Shown: positions 2,127 through 9,291 of the stretch, piece by piece | How the letters are laid out: each line of letters begins with the position of its first letter | How positions within the stretch are numbered: the first letter of the stretch is position 1 | Virus record (IMG/VR): IMGVR_UViG_2778261506_000006 | From: a virus | Lineage: Duplodnaviria > Heunggongvirae > Uroviricota > Caudoviricetes | DNA: 33,867 bases | Direction: 5' to 3' (one strand) | Notes under the pieces: generated by a model | Seen by the model: the letters and a program-made list of their open reading frames with translations, nothing else | Databases searched by the model: none | Told to the model about the DNA's origin: nothing | Made by a program: the position numbers and the translations under genes

Positions 2127-2402
2127 ATGAGCAAGCAAGTAACACTCATGACTGATGCGATTCCTTATCAGGAGTTCGCAAAACTAATAGGAAAATCGAC
2201 AGGAGCGGTTCGTCGGATGATCGATAAAGGAAAGCTGCCTGTAATTGATATGACCGATCCACAATCAGCTTCAGGTCGTGCAGGTGAATATTGGGTATAC
2301 CTTCCGGCATGGAATAACGGACTAAAACTGGCTTATGAAAGCCGCCCTAAAGAGATTCGTGACGGCTGGTTGATGTGGTTAGGTCTCGGTGAACCACGTT
2401 AA
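2127..2402 (+). CDS. cox: Cox: excisionase / repressor of Pc (91 aa)
   Basis: ATG 2127 with SD agagga; 91 aa as in P2 Cox; first gene of early operon. Confidence 0.88.
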   Translation: MSKQVTLMTDAIPYQEFAKLIGKSTGAVRRMIDKGKLPVIDMTDPQSASGRAGEYWVYLPAWNNGLKLAYESRPKEIRDGWLMWLGLGEPR

Positions 2403-2412
2403 GGAGAACCGT

Positions 2413-2583
2413 ATGAATGAGCCTCGTTGTATTGCTCAGTTACTGCGTAACGAAAGCTCCAGGGCGATTGACTTCACCATCACCCACGGTAAGGGGCGTA
2501 AGGGAATCATTATCCGCACCAAAAAACAGAGTCCGTTAAAAAAGGCTCTGACCTTTCTGAAAAGCCGGAGGGTATGGAAATGA
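2413..2583 (+). CDS. Small early protein at the P2 orf78 position (hypothetical)
   Basis: ATG 2413 preceded by AAGGAG (2401-2406); track ORF 2389 begins with GTG. Basic small protein. Confidence 0.55.
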   Translation: MNEPRCIAQLLRNESSRAIDFTITHGKGRKGIIIRTKKQSPLKKALTFLKSRRVWK

Positions 2584-3080
2584 CAGTGATGACGCTCAAT
2601 CTCGTTGAAAAACAGCCAGCAGCTATGCGCCGGATAATTGGCAAGCATCTTGCCGTCCCTCGCTGGCAGGATACATGTGATTATTATAATCAGATGATGG
2701 AGCGCGAACGGCTAACGGTTTGCTTTCATGCACAGTTAAAACAGCGTCACGCAACGATGCGTTTTGAAGAAATGAACGACGTCGAACGTGAACGACTGGT
2801 TTGTGCAATTGATGAATTGCGTGGCGCATTCTCAAAACGCCGTCAGGTTGGTGCAAGTGAGTATGCATATATTAGTTTTTTAACAGTCAGTCAGCGTCGC
2901 ACTTTATTTATGCACGCACGACTGACTGAAAAAGAATTCAACCAGCCATACTGGCGAATTAATGAAGAATCATGTTACTGGCGTGATGCTTTGTTCCGTG
3001 CATTACGTGAATTATTCAGTCTGTTTGAGTATGCACCGACAATTCTGACGTCGGTAAAACCAGAGCAATATCTGCATTAA
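2580..3080 (+). CDS. B: Replication protein B (helicase loader-like); start at 2580 gives 166 aa, alternative ATG at 2574
   Basis: Position after cox/orf78 and length match P2 B. Confidence 0.8.
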   Translation: MTVMTLNLVEKQPAAMRRIIGKHLAVPRWQDTCDYYNQMMERERLTVCFHAQLKQRHATMRFEEMNDVERERLVCAIDELRGAFSKRRQVGASEYAYISFLTVSQRRTLFMHARLTEKEFNQPYWRINEESCYWRDALFRALRELFSLFEYAPTILTSVKPEQYLH

Positions 3081-3143
3081 ATAATTAACCAGAGTTTTTA
3101 ACGCACTTAATCGTGCGGGGCTTCTTTTTGCCTGGAGAAAGTC

Positions 3144-3368
3144 ATGCATACAGTTTCTGAAAATCAGTGCGGTATATACGCATTACTGCTGCAACAGGCC
3201 AGAACCGAAGCACAGGCCGACGCTGCGACGCGCTTTTCTTCTCATCTTGACGCCATGATTCGCCACATCACAAAGGCGGAGTTATCCCGCGTGGAGATAG
3301 TCGAGCTGCTCAGTCAGGAGTCGGAAAAATTTCACAATATCGGATTGTCTCGCGGGAAGGTGCTTTGA
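3144..3368 (+). CDS. Early hypothetical protein (P2 orf80 position)
   Basis: ATG 3144 with SD ggaga; 74 aa; stop overlaps next start (TGATG). Confidence 0.7.
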
Positions 3369-3670
3369 TGTCCTGTTCTCATTCAGTTGTATTACTGAAT
3401 AACGCCTTAAAAATCGCCGTTATGAAAAATGGCGATTTGTCTCTTATTCAACTTTGTCTTGATAAAGAAAAACGCGACATAACTGAATCTGTTATCGCGA
3501 TTTATCAGAATGAATTAAACCTCCTGTCTGATGTGGTCAATTTACTTGTTAAACGCGCTGTATTCCACAAGCAAATTTCATCCGTGGATGAGCTGACAAA
3601 ATTAACGACAGAAATCGCCAGCTATTGCGCTGATGAATTCAAGAAACTGAACGATAAAAGGAGCTGGTAA
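3368..3670 (+). CDS. Early hypothetical protein (P2 orf81 position)
   Basis: ATG 3368 overlapping upstream stop; track start 3365 is TTG. Confidence 0.7.
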   Translation: MSCSHSVVLLNNALKIAVMKNGDLSLIQLCLDKEKRDITESVIAIYQNELNLLSDVVNLLVKRAVFHKQISSVDELTKLTTEIASYCADEFKKLNDKRSW

Positions 3671-3894
3671 TGCCGGACAACGTAGATTTTATTCAGGAAC
3701 AACAGGCTGAATTACTGGAGCGCCAGATTAACGCGGCAAGGGTAAAACATTGCGGTGTTTCTTCGCTGGTTTGCGAAGAGTGTGATGCGCCAATACCTGC
3801 TGCCCGTCGTGCGGCTTATCCGTCAGCCACGCGTTGTGTTTCCTGTCAGTCAGTCTTTGAAGCAAAAAACAAACATTACCGGAGAACGGCATGA
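3670..3894 (+). CDS. DksA/TraR-type C4 zinc-finger protein (P2 orf82 position)
   Basis: CxxC-x17-CxxC motif (CEECDAP...CVSCQ) in 74-aa ORF; translationally coupled (TAATG). Confidence 0.75.
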   Translation: MPDNVDFIQEQQAELLERQINAARVKHCGVSSLVCEECDAPIPAARRAAYPSATRCVSCQSVFEAKNKHYRRTA

Positions 3895-4166
3895 GTATTC
3901 GTATTGAAATTGGCGAACGTTATGTCGTTACCAGTGACAGCTTTCAGTTTATTCTCCACGAGAAAAAGAGAGCGGAAAGCGGTAAAAACGCCGGTCAGGA
4001 ATGGCTGTCGGTGGTTGGTTATTACCCGAAATTAAGCCAGCTCGTTTCCGGCCTGATGCATCACGATATTCTGACCGGAAGCGCAAAGTCTTTTGCTGAT
4101 TTAAACGCGCAGGTTGAGCAACTCAGCAAGCGTTGTTCAGAGGTTTTTGGCTCATATGGCAGTTAA
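3891..4166 (+). CDS. Early hypothetical protein (P2 orf83 position)
   Basis: ATG 3891 with SD ggaga; 91 aa. Confidence 0.7.
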   Translation: MSIRIEIGERYVVTSDSFQFILHEKKRAESGKNAGQEWLSVVGYYPKLSQLVSGLMHHDILTGSAKSFADLNAQVEQLSKRCSEVFGSYGS

Positions 4167-6432
4167 AGCCTCCGGGCGTTGTGTCCCTCCGTCAGCATTT
4201 GCCGCAGGCACCGGTAAGACGTTTACCGGTGCTTATGCATGGAACGCGCCACGCGAGGCCGTCGGGCGCGAAAGACCCCTTACACGTGACGAGATGCGTC
4301 AGGTGCAAGGTGTTTTATCCACGATTAACCGCCTGCCTTACTTTTTGCGCTCGCTGTTTACTTCACGCTATGACTACATCCGGCGCAATAAAAGCCCGGT
4401 GCACGGGTTTTATTTCCTCACATCCACTTTTCAGCGTCGTTTATGGCCGCGCATTGAGCGTGTGAATCAGCGCCATGAAATGAACACCGACGCGTCGTTA
4501 CTGTTTCTGGCAGAGCGTGACCACTATGCGCGCCTGCCGGGAATGAATGACAAGGAGCTGAAAAAGTTTGCTGCCCGTATCTCATCGCAGCTTTTCATGA
4601 TGTATGAGGAACTCAGCGATGCCTGGGTGGATGCGCATGGCGAAAAAGAATCGCTGTTTACGGATGAGGCGCAGGCTCACCTGTATGGTCATGTTGCTGG
4701 CGCTGCACGTGCTTTCAATATTTCCCCTCTCTACTGGAAAAAATACCGTAAAGGGCAGATGACCACGAGGCAGGCATATTCTGCCATTGCCCGTCTGTTT
4801 AACGATGAGTGGTGGACTCATCAGCTTAAAGGCCAGCGTATGCGCTGGCATGAGGCGTTACTGATTGCTGTCGGGGAGGTCAATAAAGACCGTTCTCCTT
4901 ATGCCAGTAAACATGCCATTCGTGATGTGCGCGCGCGCCGCCAGGCAAATCTGGAATTTCTTAAATCGTGTGACCTTGAAAACAGGGAAACCGGCGAACG
5001 CATCGACCTTATCAGTAAGGTTATGGGCAGTATTTCTAATCCAGAAATTCGCCGGATGGAGCTGATGAACACCATTGCCGGTATTGAGCGTTACGCCGCC
5101 GCAGAGGGTGATGTGGGGATGTTTATCACGCTGACCGCGCCGTCAAAGTATCACCCGACACGTCAGGTCGGAAAAGGCGAAAGTAAAGCCGTCCAGCTAA
5201 ATCACGGCTGGAACGATGAGGCATTTAATCCAAAGGATGCGCAGCGTTATCTCTGCCGCATCTGGAGCCTGATGCGCACGGCATTCAAGGATAATGATTT
5301 ACAGGTCTACGGTTTGCGTGTCGTCGAGCCACACCACGACGGAACGCCGCACTGGCATATGATGCTTTTTTGTAATCCACGCCAGCGTAACCAGATTATT
5401 GAAATCATGCGTCGCTACGCGCTCAAAGAGGATGGCGACGAAAGAGGAGCTGCGCGAAACCGTTTTCAGGCAAAACATCTTAACCGGGGCGGTGCTGCGG
5501 GATATATCGCGAAATACATTTCAAAAAACATCGACGGCTATGCACTGGATGGTCAGCTCGATAACGACACCGGCAGGCCGCTGAAAGACACTGCAGCGGC
5601 TGTTACCGCATGGGCGTCAACGTGGCGCATCCCGCAATTTAAAACGGTTGGCCTGCCGACAATGGGGGCTTACCGTGAACTACGCAAATTGCCTCGCGGC
5701 GTCAGCATTGCTGATGAGTTTGACGAACGCGTTGAGGCTGCACGTGCCGCCGCAGACAGTGGTGATTTTGCGTTGTATATCAGCGCACAGGGTGGGGCAA
5801 ATGTTCCGCGTGATTGCCAGACTGTCAGAGTCGCCCGTAGCCCGTCGGATGACGTTAACGAGTACGAGGAAGAAGTCGAGAGAGTGGTCGGCATTTACGC
5901 GCCGCATCTCGGCGCGCGTCATATTCATATCACCAGAACGACGGACTGGCGCATTGTGCCGAAAGTTCCGGTCGTTGAGCCTTTGACTTTAAAAAGCGGC
6001 ATCGCCGCGCCTCGGAGTCCTGTCAATAACTGTGGAAAGCTCACCGGTGGTGATACTTCGTTACCGGCTCCCACACCTTCTGAGCACGCCGCAGCAGTGC
6101 TTAATCTGGTTGATGACGGTGTTATCGAATGGAATGACACGGAGGTCGTGAGGGCGCTCAGGGGGGCATTAAAACACGACCTGAGAACACCAAATCGTCA
6201 GCAAAGAAACGGAAGCCCGTTAAAACCACATGAAATTGCACCATCGGCCAGACTGACCCGGTCGGAAAGAATGCAAATTACCCGTATCCGCGTTGACCTT
6301 GCTCAGAACGGTATCAGGCCGCAGCGATGGGAGCTTGAGGCGCTGGCGCGTGGCGCGACCGTAAATTATTACGGGAAATCTTTCAATTATCAGGTCGCTG
6401 ATGAGTGGCCTGGATTTTTGTTACCCATTTGA
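4156..6432 (+). CDS. A: Replication initiation protein A (rolling-circle HUH endonuclease); start uncertain (ATG 4156, or TTG 4147 giving 761 aa, or TTG 4114)
   Basis: About 760 aa; HUH-type motif PHWHMMLF and active-site tyrosine region AGYIAKYISKNIDGY; position after orf83. Confidence 0.88.
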   Translation: MAVKASGRCVPPSAFAAGTGKTFTGAYAWNAPREAVGRERPLTRDEMRQVQGVLSTINRLPYFLRSLFTSRYDYIRRNKSPVHGFYFLTSTFQRRLWPRIERVNQRHEMNTDASLLFLAERDHYARLPGMNDKELKKFAARISSQLFMMYEELSDAWVDAHGEKESLFTDEAQAHLYGHVAGAARAFNISPLYWKKYRKGQMTTRQAYSAIARLFNDEWWTHQLKGQRMRWHEALLIAVGEVNKDRSPYASKHAIRDVRARRQANLEFLKSCDLENRETGERIDLISKVMGSISNPEIRRMELMNTIAGIERYAAAEGDVGMFITLTAPSKYHPTRQVGKGESKAVQLNHGWNDEAFNPKDAQRYLCRIWSLMRTAFKDNDLQVYGLRVVEPHHDGTPHWHMMLFCNPRQRNQIIEIMRRYALKEDGDERGAARNRFQAKHLNRGGAAGYIAKYISKNIDGYALDGQLDNDTGRPLKDTAAAVTAWASTWRIPQFKTVGLPTMGAYRELRKLPRGVSIADEFDERVEAARAAADSGDFALYISAQGGANVPRDCQTVRVARSPSDDVNEYEEEVERVVGIYAPHLGARHIHITRTTDWRIVPKVPVVEPLTLKSGIAAPRSPVNNCGKLTGGDTSLPAPTPSEHAAAVLNLVDDGVIEWNDTEVVRALRGALKHDLRTPNRQQRNGSPLKPHEIAPSARLTRSERMQITRIRVDLAQNGIRPQRWELEALARGATVNYYGKSFNYQVADEWPGFLLPI

Positions 6433-6692
6433 GTAAAAATGCAGCGTGATTTTATATGCCTTTGAATGGATTATGCGAAGCGCCTCTAAGGCAGATGAGG
6501 AGCAATAGCATGCTGAAGTAGAAGGCTAAATTGTATTGAATCGCTAGCATGTAATTTAAGGCAGCTATTTGATTCGAGTCATAAAAGAGCATCTATTTCG
6601 GCTAATAAAACCATTGCGAGTGACCTTTTGTCGAAGCATAATTCATCTCGAGCGAAGTCTTGCTAGTCTTTCATCGGAATGATGACAGGCGC

Positions 6693-6722
6693 AAAAAAAC
6701 CACCCTGGCAGGTGGTTTTTTT
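6693..6722. terminator. Bidirectional rho-independent terminator (A7-ccaccc-tggca-ggtgg-T7)
   Basis: GC stem flanked by A-run upstream and T-run downstream; downstream of gene A (+) and of the small minus-strand ORF. Confidence 0.7.
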
Positions 6723-6734
6723 GTTTGAAGCATA

Positions 6735-6848
6735 CTAAAGAATAATACTTACATGGATATTACTGACGTTTACTGACAAACCACTTGGACTACCATATGG
6801 ATAGCCAAAGAGGGCCAGAACGAGAATGCAGTAATAGCACTTCTTCAT
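6735..6848 (-). CDS. Putative 37-aa hydrophobic small protein (MKKCYYCILVLALFGYPYGSPSGLSVNVSNIHVSIIL)
   Basis: ATG at 6848 (minus) preceded by AGGAGGAG; ends just before the bidirectional terminator; not in the supplied track (below 60 aa). Confidence 0.35.
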   Translation of the reverse strand: MKKCYYCILVLALFGYPYGSPSGLSVNVSNIHVSIIL

Positions 6849-7418
6849 ATCTCCTCCTGTAAGCAGAGGGCAATTTCCGCCGATATATGCGCTTCTAAGG
6901 CGGAGTTACTATTTAGCGAAGTCTTGCCCTGAAATAATGCTCTGTTTAAACGCAAAGTGATCTGGCATATCACCGAACAGAGAGCCTGAACAACACAACA
7001 TATAGTATGTCGTTGTTTCTGGTTGCATTTTATGTTGTGTAATACTGGTTTTGCATCAAGGATGTTTGAGCTTTTTTTGATATAGCTCAAAGTAAAAAGC
7101 AGGGACTACGGATGATAAGGTATTGAAAGCAATGTAAATTTTTTAAAGTTATTGGTGGCTAAAAAATGCACGATTTCAATATGGCGGACTTAAATAAGCA
7201 ATTAAAAAAGTCATAAATATCACTAAAATCATGGTGTTACGTTTTTTGTGGGAGCTGCGGTGACGCTTAAGTTGATTTGTCATTAAATAAGCCGTGCATG
7301 CAACAAGTGAATGTTTTTGCATGCGTCGGGGATGCCCGTTCCCGCTGCTTGCGGTCAGAGCTGGTGCGGATCCATAGTATCTATGCAACTGCATTAAAAC
7401 CGCCACATGAAGCGGGCG

Positions 7419-7437
7419 GGCGAGGCGGGGAAAGCAC
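7419..7437. other. cos: cos site: 19-nt P2 cohesive-end sequence GGCGAGGCGGGGAAAGCAC
   Basis: Exact match to the P2/P4 cohesive end as I remember it; lies between A and Q as expected for a P2 prophage. Confidence 0.65.
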
Positions 7438-7473
7438 CGCGCGTAAGATAAACAGAAGAGCGAAGGATTATGG

Positions 7474-7528
7474 TTGAGTATTTGTGTTTTTGTACATATG
7501 ATAAAAAGGTGTTTACGCTTAAAAACAC
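7474..7528 (+). promoter_or_regulatory. Candidate sigma70 promoter for the cargo cassette (-35 TTGAGT 7474-7479, 17-bp spacer, -10 TATGAT 7497-7502) with inverted repeat GTGTTT-N8-AAACAC (7509-7528) before the RBS
   Basis: Read from sequence; hexamers and spacing are near consensus; untested. Confidence 0.3.
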
Positions 7529-7543
7529 ATCAAAGGAGATGAT

Positions 7544-8845
7544 ATGGAAAATATAAAGATTGATAAGTTTCTCACTATTCAAAAAGTTGATATTCCTCTT
7601 AAGAAAGTGAATATATTTATTGGGCCTCAGGCACAGGGGAAAAGTGTCATTGCAAAGCTAATAAAATATTTTAAAGATTATCCTATGGATATACTACGAG
7701 CTTCAACAGAGGGTAAAACTAAAAGAGACATATTGAAGGAGCAAAAGAATAAGTTTAGTAAAATTTTCCCTCAGCAGTATTGGGCTGATGATGAGTTTTT
7801 TATTGAGTATAGTAATAAGCACTATTGGGTGCGGATTACTAATCGAAAAAATAGCAAAGGGTCATTGAAAATAGCCCTTTCTGAGAATTTAACGAAGACG
7901 ATTGCTAAACTTCGTTTGATTGTACGAAAGGATTTAGATGAAAATATTGAGAATTCACTTGCAGAAAGCGTTACGAGAAGACGTAAACGCGGAATTGAAC
8001 ATGAATTGCGAGTATGTCTTTCTCTAGGATTGTTTTCAGAACCAGAAACAAAGCTTGAAAGTGTTTTTTATATCCCCGCAGGGCGCTCTTTTTTTGCTAA
8101 TTTGCAAAAAAATGTGTTTTCATTTTTATCCAGTAGTATAGAAATTGACTACTTTTTGACAGAGTTTGGTTCTCTGTATGAACAAACAAAAAAATTATTT
8201 AACCAAGATTACATGATTAGGATGCTTAGGGGGGCTGTGCCTCAACATGTTAATAAACTTGTGGAGGAGTTGATTTGCGGAAAATATATAACAGAAAAGG
8301 GTGAGGATTTTATTCGTCATGCTGCTAAGAAGACGAATCTTAACAACTCGAGCTCAGGGCAGCAAGAAGCGTTACCAATGGCTTTAATGTTATCCTCATG
8401 GCCGTATTTACAGTCTATGACTAGTAAGAGTTTTATTATTGAGGAGCCGGAGGCTCATCTGTTTCCTTCTGCCCAAGCAAAAGTTGTATCTTTAATAGCC
8501 TCAGCGTATAACCAAGCAGAAAGCTATTGTAGCTATACAATAACAACACATAGTCCATATATTCTAAGTGCCTTCAATAATTTGATTCAAGCAGGTAATG
8601 CATTGAAGTGTATTAAGGGCAAGAATAATACCGATATCGAACGCTTATATAAGCTTGTTCCAGAGTCTCAAATTATTGATTTTGATGATGTGACAGCTTA
8701 TATGGTTAATGCTGGGAAAGTGACGGAAATACTGGATTCCGAACTAAATATATTAGATGCGAATGAAATAGATAGGATTTCCTCTATTTTTTCAGAGACT
8801 TTTGATGCATTGATTGATATCGAATATTCGGCTACTGTGAATTAG
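7544..8845 (+). CDS. AAA15/ABC-type ATPase (OLD/AriA/PtuA-like N-terminal ATPase fold), 433 aa; candidate defence-system ATPase
   Basis: Walker A GPQAQGKS, signature-like LSSGQQEALPMALML, Walker B/D-loop FIIEEPEAHLFP, H-loop TTHSPYIL; strong SD AAGGAG 5 nt before ATG; AT-rich relative to phage core. Confidence 0.8.
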   Translation: MENIKIDKFLTIQKVDIPLKKVNIFIGPQAQGKSVIAKLIKYFKDYPMDILRASTEGKTKRDILKEQKNKFSKIFPQQYWADDEFFIEYSNKHYWVRITNRKNSKGSLKIALSENLTKTIAKLRLIVRKDLDENIENSLAESVTRRRKRGIEHELRVCLSLGLFSEPETKLESVFYIPAGRSFFANLQKNVFSFLSSSIEIDYFLTEFGSLYEQTKKLFNQDYMIRMLRGAVPQHVNKLVEELICGKYITEKGEDFIRHAAKKTNLNNSSSGQQEALPMALMLSSWPYLQSMTSKSFIIEEPEAHLFPSAQAKVVSLIASAYNQAESYCSYTITTHSPYILSAFNNLIQAGNALKCIKGKNNTDIERLYKLVPESQIIDFDDVTAYMVNAGKVTEILDSELNILDANEIDRISSIFSETFDALIDIEYSATVN

Positions 8846-8853
8846 GTGATTGA

Positions 8854-9291
8854 ATGTGTAAAAATTGCAAAGGAAAAACAAAAAATAAAATCATTGTGCT
8901 ATCTGATAAAGGAACGTCAACGCAATTGTCAGTCACAAATGATAATGAGTTGGAAGTTGAGCATAAGTTAATAGATGGTTGCGCTATTGTTGTTGGAGAG
9001 CGGTGTGATCATTATTTGAAGATTTATAACAATCAGGATGTTTCACATCTTTTTGTTGAACTTAAAGGAAGTGATGTTGAAAAAGCTGTTAAACAGATAG
9101 TGACAACTTTAAAGTCAGGTGTGATTAATGTAGGTGCTAAAGAAAAAAAACATGGTGCTATTGTTAGCACTAGGAATCCGCTAAACTCAACAGAAACCAA
9201 TAGGTTAAAGAAGAAAATTCTTTTGAGTGACGGAGTGAATTTGCATTTCTATAAAATGAAGGCGCAGCAAAAAATAACTTCTTTTACATGA
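8854..9291 (+). CDS. Small 145-aa partner protein, possible nuclease-like effector (Cys pairs, D-H...NN...H and D...ELK motifs); function unknown
   Basis: ATG 8854 eight nt after ATPase stop with SD AGGTGA; internal repeated motif I(I/L)(V/L)LSD; no homolog recognised by eye. Confidence 0.7.
   Translation: MCKNCKGKTKNKIIVLSDKGTSTQLSVTNDNELEVEHKLIDGCAIVVGERCDHYLKIYNNQDVSHLFVELKGSDVEKAVKQIVTTLKSGVINVGAKEKKHGAIVSTRNPLNSTETNRLKKKILLSDGVNLHFYKMKAQQKITSFT

Follow-up and report, generated by a model that had tools for sequence, protein, structure and literature searches.

The 33,867-nt window analysed here (IMG/VR record IMGVR_UViG_2778261506_000006; Caudoviricetes) is a P2-like (Peduovirus) prophage, and its interval between gene A and the cohesive-end site cos (6433-7418) contains what on comparative grounds is a self-contained mobile cassette of about 575 bp (~6567-7139, with features on both strands). 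We interpret this cassette, with a probability of about 0.65, as a type I toxin-antitoxin-like family whose architecture resembles that of par of plasmid pAD1 and which carries a new peptide family. On the minus strand, a copy of the host nrdDG promoter is predicted to drive a messenger RNA (mRNA) for a hydrophobic peptide of 37 amino acids. On the plus strand, a small RNA (sRNA) of about 73 nt is predicted to converge on it, to share its terminator and to pair with it through a 13-bp direct repeat.

The limits of the unit are set by its occurrence in unrelated surroundings. A unit of ~575-583 nt with sharp ends is common to P2-like prophages and to Klebsiella and Enterobacter plasmids, and a copy on a K. 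pneumoniae plasmid (L039:2702-3284; L numbers designate the loci compared) could be aligned over 583 nt with those of E. coli prophages (~73% identity, E 4e-79). At the five plasmid loci compared, the entire unit was conserved, beyond the open reading frame (ORF) alone, in gene neighbourhoods unrelated to P2. Over 28 distinct prophage copies conservation was strong from 6629 to 7148 and dropped on both sides, beyond 7148 and, where it was weaker, left of 6629; the sharp right-hand edge at ~7148 is accounted for by the nrdDG promoter homology described below. A preliminary description of this DNA had suggested a miniature inserted module, and the recurrence of the same unit with sharp ends in prophages and on plasmids agrees with that suggestion. 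At its left edge, about 75 nt upstream of the predicted sRNA start, the unit has a conserved dyad on the plus strand (TTGAY-N4-GTCAT, 6568-6581), which is kept in phage-type and plasmid-type copies while the adjacent bases vary. This dyad matches the FNR consensus at 8/10 positions, but its distance is atypical.

The region was found by megablast in 183 of 5426 complete E. coli genomes, in every case on the chromosome and in P2-like prophages. Copies fell into identity bands to the window of ≥99%, 95-99%, 90-95% and 80-90%, and the copy of E. coli E24377A (NC_009801: 1006578-1007565) was 99.3% identical; E. coli W/KO11FL is a further carrier. The Prokaryotic Genome Annotation Pipeline (PGAP) marks no feature at the E. 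coli copies. A few Peduovirus records also carry the region; in one of these, Salmonella phage MET_P1_103_31, the 37-amino-acid ORF is annotated as hypothetical, which is also how the peptide is named in every source holding it, such as ECW_m2278 of E. coli W. A tblastn search of plasmids with the peptide returned 394 records (390 from Klebsiella, 333 conjugative) at identities of at most 65% and mostly below 60%. The matches spanned at least 80% of the peptide in 390 of the 394, and none among the matches listed was annotated. Scanning metagenomes with the invariant motif of the mRNA's 5' untranslated region (5' UTR), using the pattern CTCTGTTCGGTGN{4,5}GCCARATCACTT, gave 31 further loci. We compared 68 complete copies, of which 40 are unique; their diversity is modest, with four phage clades and about six plasmid-type variants.

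Two of these loci have neighbourhoods of their own interest. Metagenome contig Ga0268256_1001162 (L063) carries two modules of different subtypes (3679-3707 and 6600-6628), 2.9 kb apart, with peptides beginning MNRWCLC and MNRVCLC. On the K. pneumoniae plasmid of L039 (CP065834), positions 2069-2156 of the plus strand score 45.1 bits with the Rfam family AgrB (RF02891; gathering score 40). The match is ~550 nt upstream of the module, with ~850 nt separating it from the module's ORF. As AgrB serves as antitoxin RNA to dinQ, a second type I locus appears to adjoin the module on this plasmid.

The 37-codon ORF (MKKCYYCILVLALFGYPYGSPSGLSVNVSNIHVSIIL, including the stop codon) occupies 6735-6848 on the minus strand and is preceded by a Shine-Dalgarno sequence, AGGAGGAG (6851-6858, read 6858->6851 on the minus strand), whose GGAGG is present in all variants and which a small hairpin is predicted to sequester. 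Both elements had been recognized in the preliminary description and are present where it placed them. The comparison of copies argues that the ORF is a real coding gene under purifying selection. Homologues lacking the ORF in frame had been named as evidence that would count against it, and the ORF is intact, at 37 codons, in 68/68 complete copies. The prophage copies differ by eight synonymous and four non-synonymous changes (ratio of non-synonymous to synonymous rates, dN/dS, 0.13; p = 0.0008 in the ORF frame), and among the other frames an excess is seen only in the antisense frame that shares the ORF's wobble positions, which has stops. For seven diverged homologues, dN/dS was 0.09-0.41 in 21/21 pairs.

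The family consensus of the peptide is M-[KN]-[KR]-x3-C-[IM]LVL[AT]LFGYP-x-[GD]-[SG]-[PQ]-SG-[LW]-S-x2-V-[SN]-[NH]-x7. A basic N-terminus is followed by a hydrophobic stretch of ~13-16 residues and a polar, partly amphipathic C-terminal half, and the N-terminal hydrophobic segment has a Kyte-Doolittle peak of 2.46 and a grand average of hydropathy of 0.91. The N-terminus of the phage type has CYYC, which the plasmid type does not. A small ORF (below about 60 codons) for a hydrophobic peptide is what type I toxin loci possess, and by its N-terminal segment the peptide looks like a small membrane toxin, a likeness that the preliminary description had also drawn. Its other proposal, a leader peptide, did not survive, since no gene lies past the terminator on the minus strand and the match to the Rfam family Phe_leader is below threshold (23-26 bits against a gathering score of 55, resting on the terminator hairpin). 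A transcription-attenuation leader was likewise rejected: gene A converges from the other side, no minus-strand gene follows, and the peptide contains no run of a single amino acid. We also set aside a 39-amino-acid ORF (7028->6909), which lacks a Shine-Dalgarno sequence and whose frame is broken in the L005 clade by a 2-nt indel.

Converging on the peptide gene from the plus strand is a sigma-70 promoter predicted by a promoter scan at 6614-6642 (TTGCGA, a 17-nt spacer and CATAAT). Its TTGCGR and CATAAT hexamers and the 17-nt spacing are kept in all variants, while the spacer itself differs in sequence. Every variant has the invariant GAGCGAAGUCUUGC starting 7 nt past the -10 hexamer, and transcription is predicted to start at the G or A of GAGCGAAG (~6650). 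Folding and alignment predict an antisense, antitoxin-like sRNA at 6650-6722 (plus strand) consisting of a 5' seed, a middle hairpin and an intrinsic terminator; the seed, GAGCGAAGUCUUGCU (6650-6664, plus strand), begins 7 nt past the -10 hexamer in all variants and includes the first copy of the 13-bp repeat. The predicted structure of the RNA (-29.5 kcal/mol, z = -4.2) leaves the 5' end open and comprises a hairpin and the terminator. When seven distinct versions were folded as an alignment, the seed and terminator were invariant and the middle hairpin showed five compensatory double-change pairs. An invariant seed, a rebuilt hairpin and an invariant terminator are, as alignments go, the usual signature of a base-pairing sRNA.

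The intrinsic terminator (6692-6723) acts, by prediction, on both strands and is common to both RNAs. Its arms (6692-6704 and 6711-6723) are 13 nt long and 100% complementary around a 6-nt loop, and it folds at -18.8 kcal/mol on the plus strand and -19.1 kcal/mol on the minus strand (z = -3.4 and -4.1, respectively), so that the strong bidirectional terminator first noticed at 6693-6722 is indeed present and stable on both strands. A simple terminator scan does not report it, because the A7 and T7 runs are absorbed into the stem. The element is nearly invariant: a loop or stem base differs in two plasmid-type copies, and the A run is one base shorter in L043. At the terminator the two RNAs have 3' ends that match each other as full complements over 33 nt, with an inter-RNA duplex energy of -56.2 kcal/mol, and this complementarity may be the reason why the terminator is nearly invariant in phage and plasmid versions alike.

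The same terminator could be read as ordinary phage punctuation that ends the early (A) operon, with the surrounding DNA serving replication or packaging near cos and with the ORF and repeat incidental. The terminator does come ~260 nt after gene A, on the strand of that gene, where it would stop read-through, and the block does adjoin cos. However, the block also occurs on plasmids with neither P2 genes nor cos nearby, where the sRNA promoter is conserved with no A gene upstream; in addition, the ORF has a coding signature and reference P2 is without the block. We therefore attach very little weight to this explanation.

The type I interpretation depends on contact between the two RNAs, and here the direct repeat is central. 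The 13-mer AGCGAAGTCTTGC has exactly two copies in the window, at 6651-6663 and 6915-6927, where 0.07 matches would be expected in the whole window even with one mismatch; none of 100 shuffles gave two. The first copy is in the seed of the sRNA, and the second is in a predicted sRNA target within the 5' UTR of the peptide mRNA (GGCAAGACUUCGCU, 6914-6927, minus strand), ~55-70 nt upstream of the Shine-Dalgarno sequence. Because transcription of the two RNAs would use opposite strands, a DNA direct repeat gives them complementary segments, and at the sequence level the locus thus has an RNA complementary to the putative toxin mRNA, as type I systems do. We predict that the direct repeat is the pairing site between the opposing RNAs. 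Seed and target can form a contiguous helix of 14-19 bp in 68/68 copies (14 in the window, 15 in the other phage clades and 15-19 in the plasmid type), and the target is the seed's only match of at least 13 bp in the 33.9-kb window. In the consensus fold the target is partly paired, at 7/14 positions, with three further pairs just 3' of it. Both repeat copies are invariant over ~27-35% divergence of the flanks. Each substitution within the helix creates a G·U pair if the RNAs are read from the predicted strands, where the opposite strands would have an A·C mismatch: the target changes from A to G in L044, L061 and L058, and the seed from C to U in the L004 phage clade and, independently, in the plasmid-type copy L063-1. 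The argument for pairing is built on conservation, position and wobble compatibility, and full covariation is not part of it.

The preliminary description had instead taken the repeats to bracket the module and to mark a recombination scar or target-site duplication, left by a small element inserted in an emptied tin/old slot. The exact copies are where it had placed them, on both sides of the ORF and terminator, but they do not bracket the module: the unit extends past the repeats by 85 and 210 bp, to its ends at ~6567 and ~7139, and both copies are well within it. A scar would find some support in the ability of the repeats to recombine, seen in the plasmid-type copy L067, from which precisely the stretch between them, with the ORF and terminator, is missing. 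Against this, the family offers no single-copy empty site other than that deletion product, the unit has neither terminal inverted repeats nor a transposase, and the copies, invariant within diverged flanks, coincide with the predicted 5' end of the sRNA and the partly unpaired 5' UTR of the peptide mRNA. We consider a scar highly improbable. L067 itself (metagenome contig OWPP01003510, ~3191, minus strand) has the 5' UTR repeat joined directly to the sRNA-promoter side of the other repeat copy, and its ORF and terminator have been deleted by recombination between the two.

A second motif singled out at first, TAAGGC(A/G)G, does occur at the three reported sites (6487, 6557 and 6896), but its frequency is not beyond chance: the window has four matches against 1.6 expected, and 8/100 shuffles reach four. 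The two upstream copies (6487 and 6557) are not conserved in the most diverged prophage clade, and the copy at 6896 is one arm of a hairpin in the 5' UTR.

The peptide mRNA is predicted to be ~330 nt long, starting at ~7020, with a 5' UTR of ~170 nt, and ending at the terminator (6722->6693). Its leader contains structures that persist across copies. The hairpin at 6877-6903 (minus strand; CCGCC...GGCGG), which contains the third TAAGGCGG site, becomes CCACC...GGTGG in the L004/L005 clade, a compensatory change from G-C to A-U. Upstream of it, the consensus fold has an invariant stem-loop at 6940-6983 (minus strand; CUCUGUU...GGUGAU/AUCACU...AACAGAG), where the sole variable pair changes from A-U to G-U and pairs on the minus strand only. 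In the same fold the GGAGG of the Shine-Dalgarno sequence is paired with an upstream GCC..CU, and a base pair of this helix covaries (CG:3, UG:2, UA:2). The leader also takes part in a second, imperfect direct repeat, which matches at 14/16 positions between GCGCCTCTAAGGCAGA (6480-6495) and GCGCTTCTAAGGCGGA (6889-6904). A read-through RNA from gene A would be complementary there to the 5' UTR hairpin. This repeat is partly retained in three phage clades and lost in the L004/L005 clade, and its 6480 side is outside the mobile unit.

Upstream of this leader the minus strand carries a copy of the promoter of host nrdDG, which encodes the anaerobic ribonucleotide reductase (7025-7167, minus strand; 83% identity over 140 nt to the region upstream of E. 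coli K-12 nrdD). The likeness was first found as a 65-nt match to the Salmonella nrdD-treC spacer in a distant blastn search; aligned with K-12 nrdDG, the window (7167->7025) has a near-identical core of ~56 nt. Two FNR boxes are recognizable on the minus strand, box 2 at 7090->7077 (TTGAGCTATATCAA in the window vs TTGAGCTACATCAA in K-12, with one mismatch to the FNR consensus) and box 1 at 7059->7046 (TTGATGCAAAACCA vs TTGATGCAAAGCAC). Both are in register with the -10 hexamer TAAAAT (7032->7027, minus strand), which is identical in K-12 nrdDG, and the 17-nt gap is the same as in K-12. The nrdDG FNR sites were reportedly placed at -64.5 and -33.5 relative to the transcription start by Boston and Atlung in 2003. 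Before the homology placed the -10 at 7032-7027, TTTACA-15 nt-TATCAT (7138-7112) had been entertained as the peptide promoter; it was then dropped. No LexA-type box is present at the module.

In its native setting, nrdDG responds to two regulators: FNR acts as its activator, and NrdR as a repressor that binds two 16-bp boxes, of which box 1 overlaps an FNR site (PMC2892513, PMC12176259); the boxes are 15 bp apart, with centres 31-32 bp apart (PMC12176259, PMC2892513). The overlap of NrdR box 1 with an FNR site fits the K-12 sequence. The module has two NrdR-box-like 16-mers on the minus strand (6993-7040), ACACAACATAAAATGC (7040->7025) and ATACTATATGTTGTGT (7008->6993), with centres 32 bp apart and a transcription start predicted at ~7020. 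The box at 6993-7008, the homologue of nrdDG box 2, has two mismatches to the NrdR consensus. At the position of nrdDG box 1 the window has a degraded sequence, and a weaker box-like 16-mer (12/16) is found 32 bp from box 2. The inverted repeat ACACAACATA/TATGTTGTGT consists of half-sites of the two NrdR-like boxes and is explained by the promoter homology.

The promoter copies also carry traces of their history. All module copies have an 11-nt insertion between the -10 and box 2, which argues for a common origin of the modules. In plasmid-type copies the core is 81-92% identical to the Salmonella nrdD promoter and both NrdR boxes are kept, with the insertion putting box 2 ~42 bp from box 1. 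The phage-type promoter is closer to K-12 (0.83 vs 0.72). When window 7025-7167, L036, L038 and the plasmid loci were compared, the phage type shared E. coli-specific bases with K-12 nrdD (the GAGCTA...AAAAAAAGCTC form) and the plasmid type a Salmonella-like form (GTTCT...ATCAATAAAA). This host-group likeness suggests more than one later exchange between module promoters and resident nrdD promoters. One natural disruption of the promoter was noted: in a decayed P2-like prophage of E. coli CUPS TF 6/1_01 (L007; NZ_CP180632, locus positions ~3625-4847), which has a truncated integrase and gene A, the IS4-like element ISVsa5 is inserted beside the FNR-1 box, and the peptide gene is cut off from the upstream FNR box.

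Taken as a type I system, the locus might work as follows. The nrdDG-derived promoter would start the peptide mRNA near 7020, and the constitutive-looking sigma-70 promoter would start the sRNA at ~6650, both transcripts ending at the shared terminator. The RNAs could then meet at two places, at their terminator-derived 3' ends and between the first 14-16 nt of the sRNA and the partly unpaired 5' UTR, and the terminator loops may initiate the contact, as in par of pAD1 (PMC7472228). The sRNA would silence the peptide mRNA by blocking a ribosome standby or loading site upstream of the structured ribosome-binding site, by triggering cleavage of the duplex, or both. Peptide synthesis would rise whenever the nrdDG-like promoter outran the sRNA, that is, in anaerobiosis through FNR or at low deoxyadenosine triphosphate (dATP) through release of NrdR, and it would also rise on loss of the cassette, if the sRNA decayed first.

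By architecture, the closest known system appears to be par of pAD1 from Enterococcus faecalis. The par locus, which produces the Fst mRNA RNA I and its partner RNA II, likewise has convergent promoters, a shared bidirectional terminator and complementary 3' stem-loops, with oppositely transcribed DNA direct repeats as a second complementary region, a Shine-Dalgarno sequence within a hairpin and a location on a mobile element (PMC7472228, PMC4147584). Convergent promoters, a bidirectional terminator, pairing direct repeats and a sequestered Shine-Dalgarno sequence, the features described for par/Fst (PMC7472228), can all be recognized in the cassette. However, par belongs to Gram-positive hosts, and its translation start is overlapped by a pair of repeats, DRa and DRb; the cassette has a single repeat, 55-70 nt upstream, and its promoter is a captured, regulated host promoter. 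The PXXXG(C) motif and charged tail of Fst are absent from the peptide, whose lysines K2 and K3 are at the N-terminus only. As far as the sequences indicate, the locus is par-like in design without being a member of the par/Fst family, and its peptide is not of the Fst/Ldr toxin type.

By the position of the pairing site and the coupling of the promoter to a host regulator, tisB/IstR-1, zorO/OrzO and timP/TimR are the nearest known systems (PMC4147584, PMC3919570, PMC7667032). The pairs tisB/IstR-1, zorO/OrzO, shoB/OhsC and dinQ/AgrB share with the cassette a toxin promoter under a host stress regulator (LexA for tisB and dinQ) and a proposed repression at a standby site (PMC4147584, PMC3919570); for IstR-1 on tisB, occupation of the standby or loading site or cleavage of the duplex is described (PMC4147584). 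Unlike the cassette, they are divergent pairs with no shared terminator and with unrelated peptides, and LexA takes the place of the FNR and NrdR predicted here. The timP/TimR pair (the ryfA locus of Salmonella and other enterobacteria) encodes a peptide of 37-38 amino acids with a hydrophobic, signal-like N-terminal part, and the 5' end of its sRNA is complementary to the 5' UTR over 18 nt; this gene, too, was overlooked through its small size (PMC7667032). It differs in being a divergent core-genome locus with neither a shared terminator nor an nrdDG-type promoter. With the nrdDG promoter of E. coli and Salmonella, finally, the module shares both FNR boxes, the -10 and NrdR box 2, together with box 1 in plasmid copies, but it drives a 37-codon ORF instead of nrdD and bears the 11-nt insertion.

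Searches of Rfam over window positions 6200-7700 gave nothing at the gathering score, and no type I family (Sok, Sib, RdlD, IstR, OrzO-P, AgrB, SymR or RyfA/timP RF00126) appeared even at E values up to 10. The best matches there, RNAI (26 bits vs 47) and Phe_leader (26 vs 55), both rest on the terminator. The module regions of plasmid loci L039, L040 and L042 had no Rfam match. In the full-text literature, we found no prior description under the peptide strings or as an anaerobic, FNR-linked type I toxin.

The main alternative is that the cassette encodes a small membrane protein with a cognate base-pairing sRNA and is not a toxin-antitoxin system at all: on this view the peptide, produced under anaerobic or low-deoxynucleotide conditions, would be harmless and act as a regulator or in lysogenic conversion, and the sRNA would simply tune it or also target host mRNAs. 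All of the sequence evidence fits such a pair and is silent on toxicity; the hydrophobic segment of the peptide is short, its C-terminal half is polar and it belongs to no known toxin family; and condition-specific, host-derived promoters are commoner in regulated accessory genes than in constitutive addiction modules. On the other hand, the cassette is carried by prophages and by large conjugative plasmids, two copies lie on one contig, and an AgrB-type locus lies beside the module on one Klebsiella plasmid. Double complementarity together with a sequestered Shine-Dalgarno sequence is typical of type I toxin loci (PMC7472228, PMC4147584), and TimP, at 38 amino acids with a signal-like N-terminus, is toxic (PMC7667032). 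We judge a non-toxic pair possible but clearly the less probable of the two.

Several observations nonetheless weigh against the type I toxin-antitoxin interpretation. The starts of transcription, both RNAs and the peptide itself are predictions. A joint change of seed and target was not found in any of the 68 complete copies; the support for pairing comes from conservation and three to four wobble-compatible one-sided changes, which alone give p ~0.06-0.125. The RNAduplex energy of the pair was reached by 28/500 mononucleotide shuffles and by 22/169 genomic chunks; such energies have no discriminating power, since long interior loops are permitted. Folded by itself, the window's 5' UTR is not unusually stable (z = +0.43). 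The peptide matches no family, toxin families included, in Pfam and NCBIfam (even at E up to 0.1 and 10), PHROGs or PADLOC. Its short hydrophobic stretch and polar or amphipathic C-terminal half are unlike the classical single-helix type I toxins, and its single-sequence AlphaFold model, a helix-loop-helix, is weak (predicted local distance difference test score of 70). In the promoter, the FNR-1 box and NrdR box 1 of the phage type are degraded relative to nrdDG and a 2-nt insertion in the L005 clade changes the box spacing; regulation may therefore differ between variants.

The cassette occupies a region that is variable among P2-like phages. Gene A (772 amino acids; Pfam Phage_GPA, 7e-124) ends at 6432, and the P2-type cos 19-mer, GGCGAGGCGGGGAAAGCAC (7419-7437, plus strand), lies outside the module and has no mismatch to the 19-nt cohesive-end sequence of P2. 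Between the two, the longest mechanically called ORF has 81 codons and a TTG start. Comparison of this interval with reference P2, which had been proposed at the outset, found orf91, tin and old there and no block corresponding to 6567-7139. The preliminary description had called the tin/old/orf91 slot empty; it is right that no long ORF lies between A and cos, but the statement misleads, in that the variable hotspot of P2-like phages extends from gpA to gpQ and spans cos (PMC9122126) and this prophage has cargo on the far side of cos. Before the portal gene Q are genes for a 433-amino-acid AAA_15/AAA_21 ATPase (7544-8845, plus strand) and a 145-amino-acid partner (8854-9291, plus strand), which in PADLOC match best to the two members of a candidate defence pair, PDC-M29A (2e-31) and PDC-M29B (2e-4), and more weakly to AriA-, GajA- and PtuA-type ATPases. 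This pair is the real hotspot cargo of the prophage, and the slot is empty on the A side only. Other prophages carry different cargo right of about 7200. In the prophages L004 and L005, gene A is followed by the module block, then cos and then Q, with no annotated gene between A and Q.

In these two prophages, the two sequenced ones examined that have no annotated A-Q gene, the module is the only A-Q content. The cassette itself might be a cargo of the P2 defence hotspot, a kill switch in which transcription of the toxin is tied through the nrdDG-like promoter to oxygen (FNR) and to the dATP/ATP state (NrdR). The peptide would be released, and infection aborted or cured cells killed, if deoxynucleotide pools collapsed, as on attack by a rival phage, or if the element were lost. 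We regard this extension as speculative and rather unlikely.

Immediately to the right of the module, two exact copies of a 10-bp direct repeat, TTAAATAAGC (7190-7199 and 7283-7292), flank a 93-bp segment. This segment is missing in L004 and L005, which have one hybrid copy of the repeat, and it looks like a small indel mediated by the 10-bp repeat. Many complete E. coli chromosome records (for example NZ_JALDNN010000001, NZ_CP062865 and NZ_CP074033) have the region at 2278-3263 or the module at 2414-2988, from which it follows that coordinate 1 of these assemblies is the start of prophage gene A. Apparently, the phage replication endonuclease was mistaken for the chromosomal start gene by the tools that rotate assemblies.

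The cassette represents a conserved gene pair that standard annotation has missed in ~3% of complete E. coli genomes and on ~390 sequenced Klebsiella and Enterobacter plasmids. As the module is unannotated, some hotspots that look empty are not. A direct repeat around a bidirectional terminator should prompt consideration of RNA-RNA complementarity, instead of being taken by default for a scar. If the type I interpretation is true, the par/Fst design of convergent RNAs, a shared terminator and direct repeats as a pairing device would reach beyond Gram-positive bacteria into the mobile elements of enterobacteria, where it is combined with an unrelated peptide. A captured host promoter that reads oxygen and deoxynucleotide status would be a concrete case of accessory genes plugging into host physiology, and it suggests a link between the sensing of nucleotide pools and the control of a toxin.

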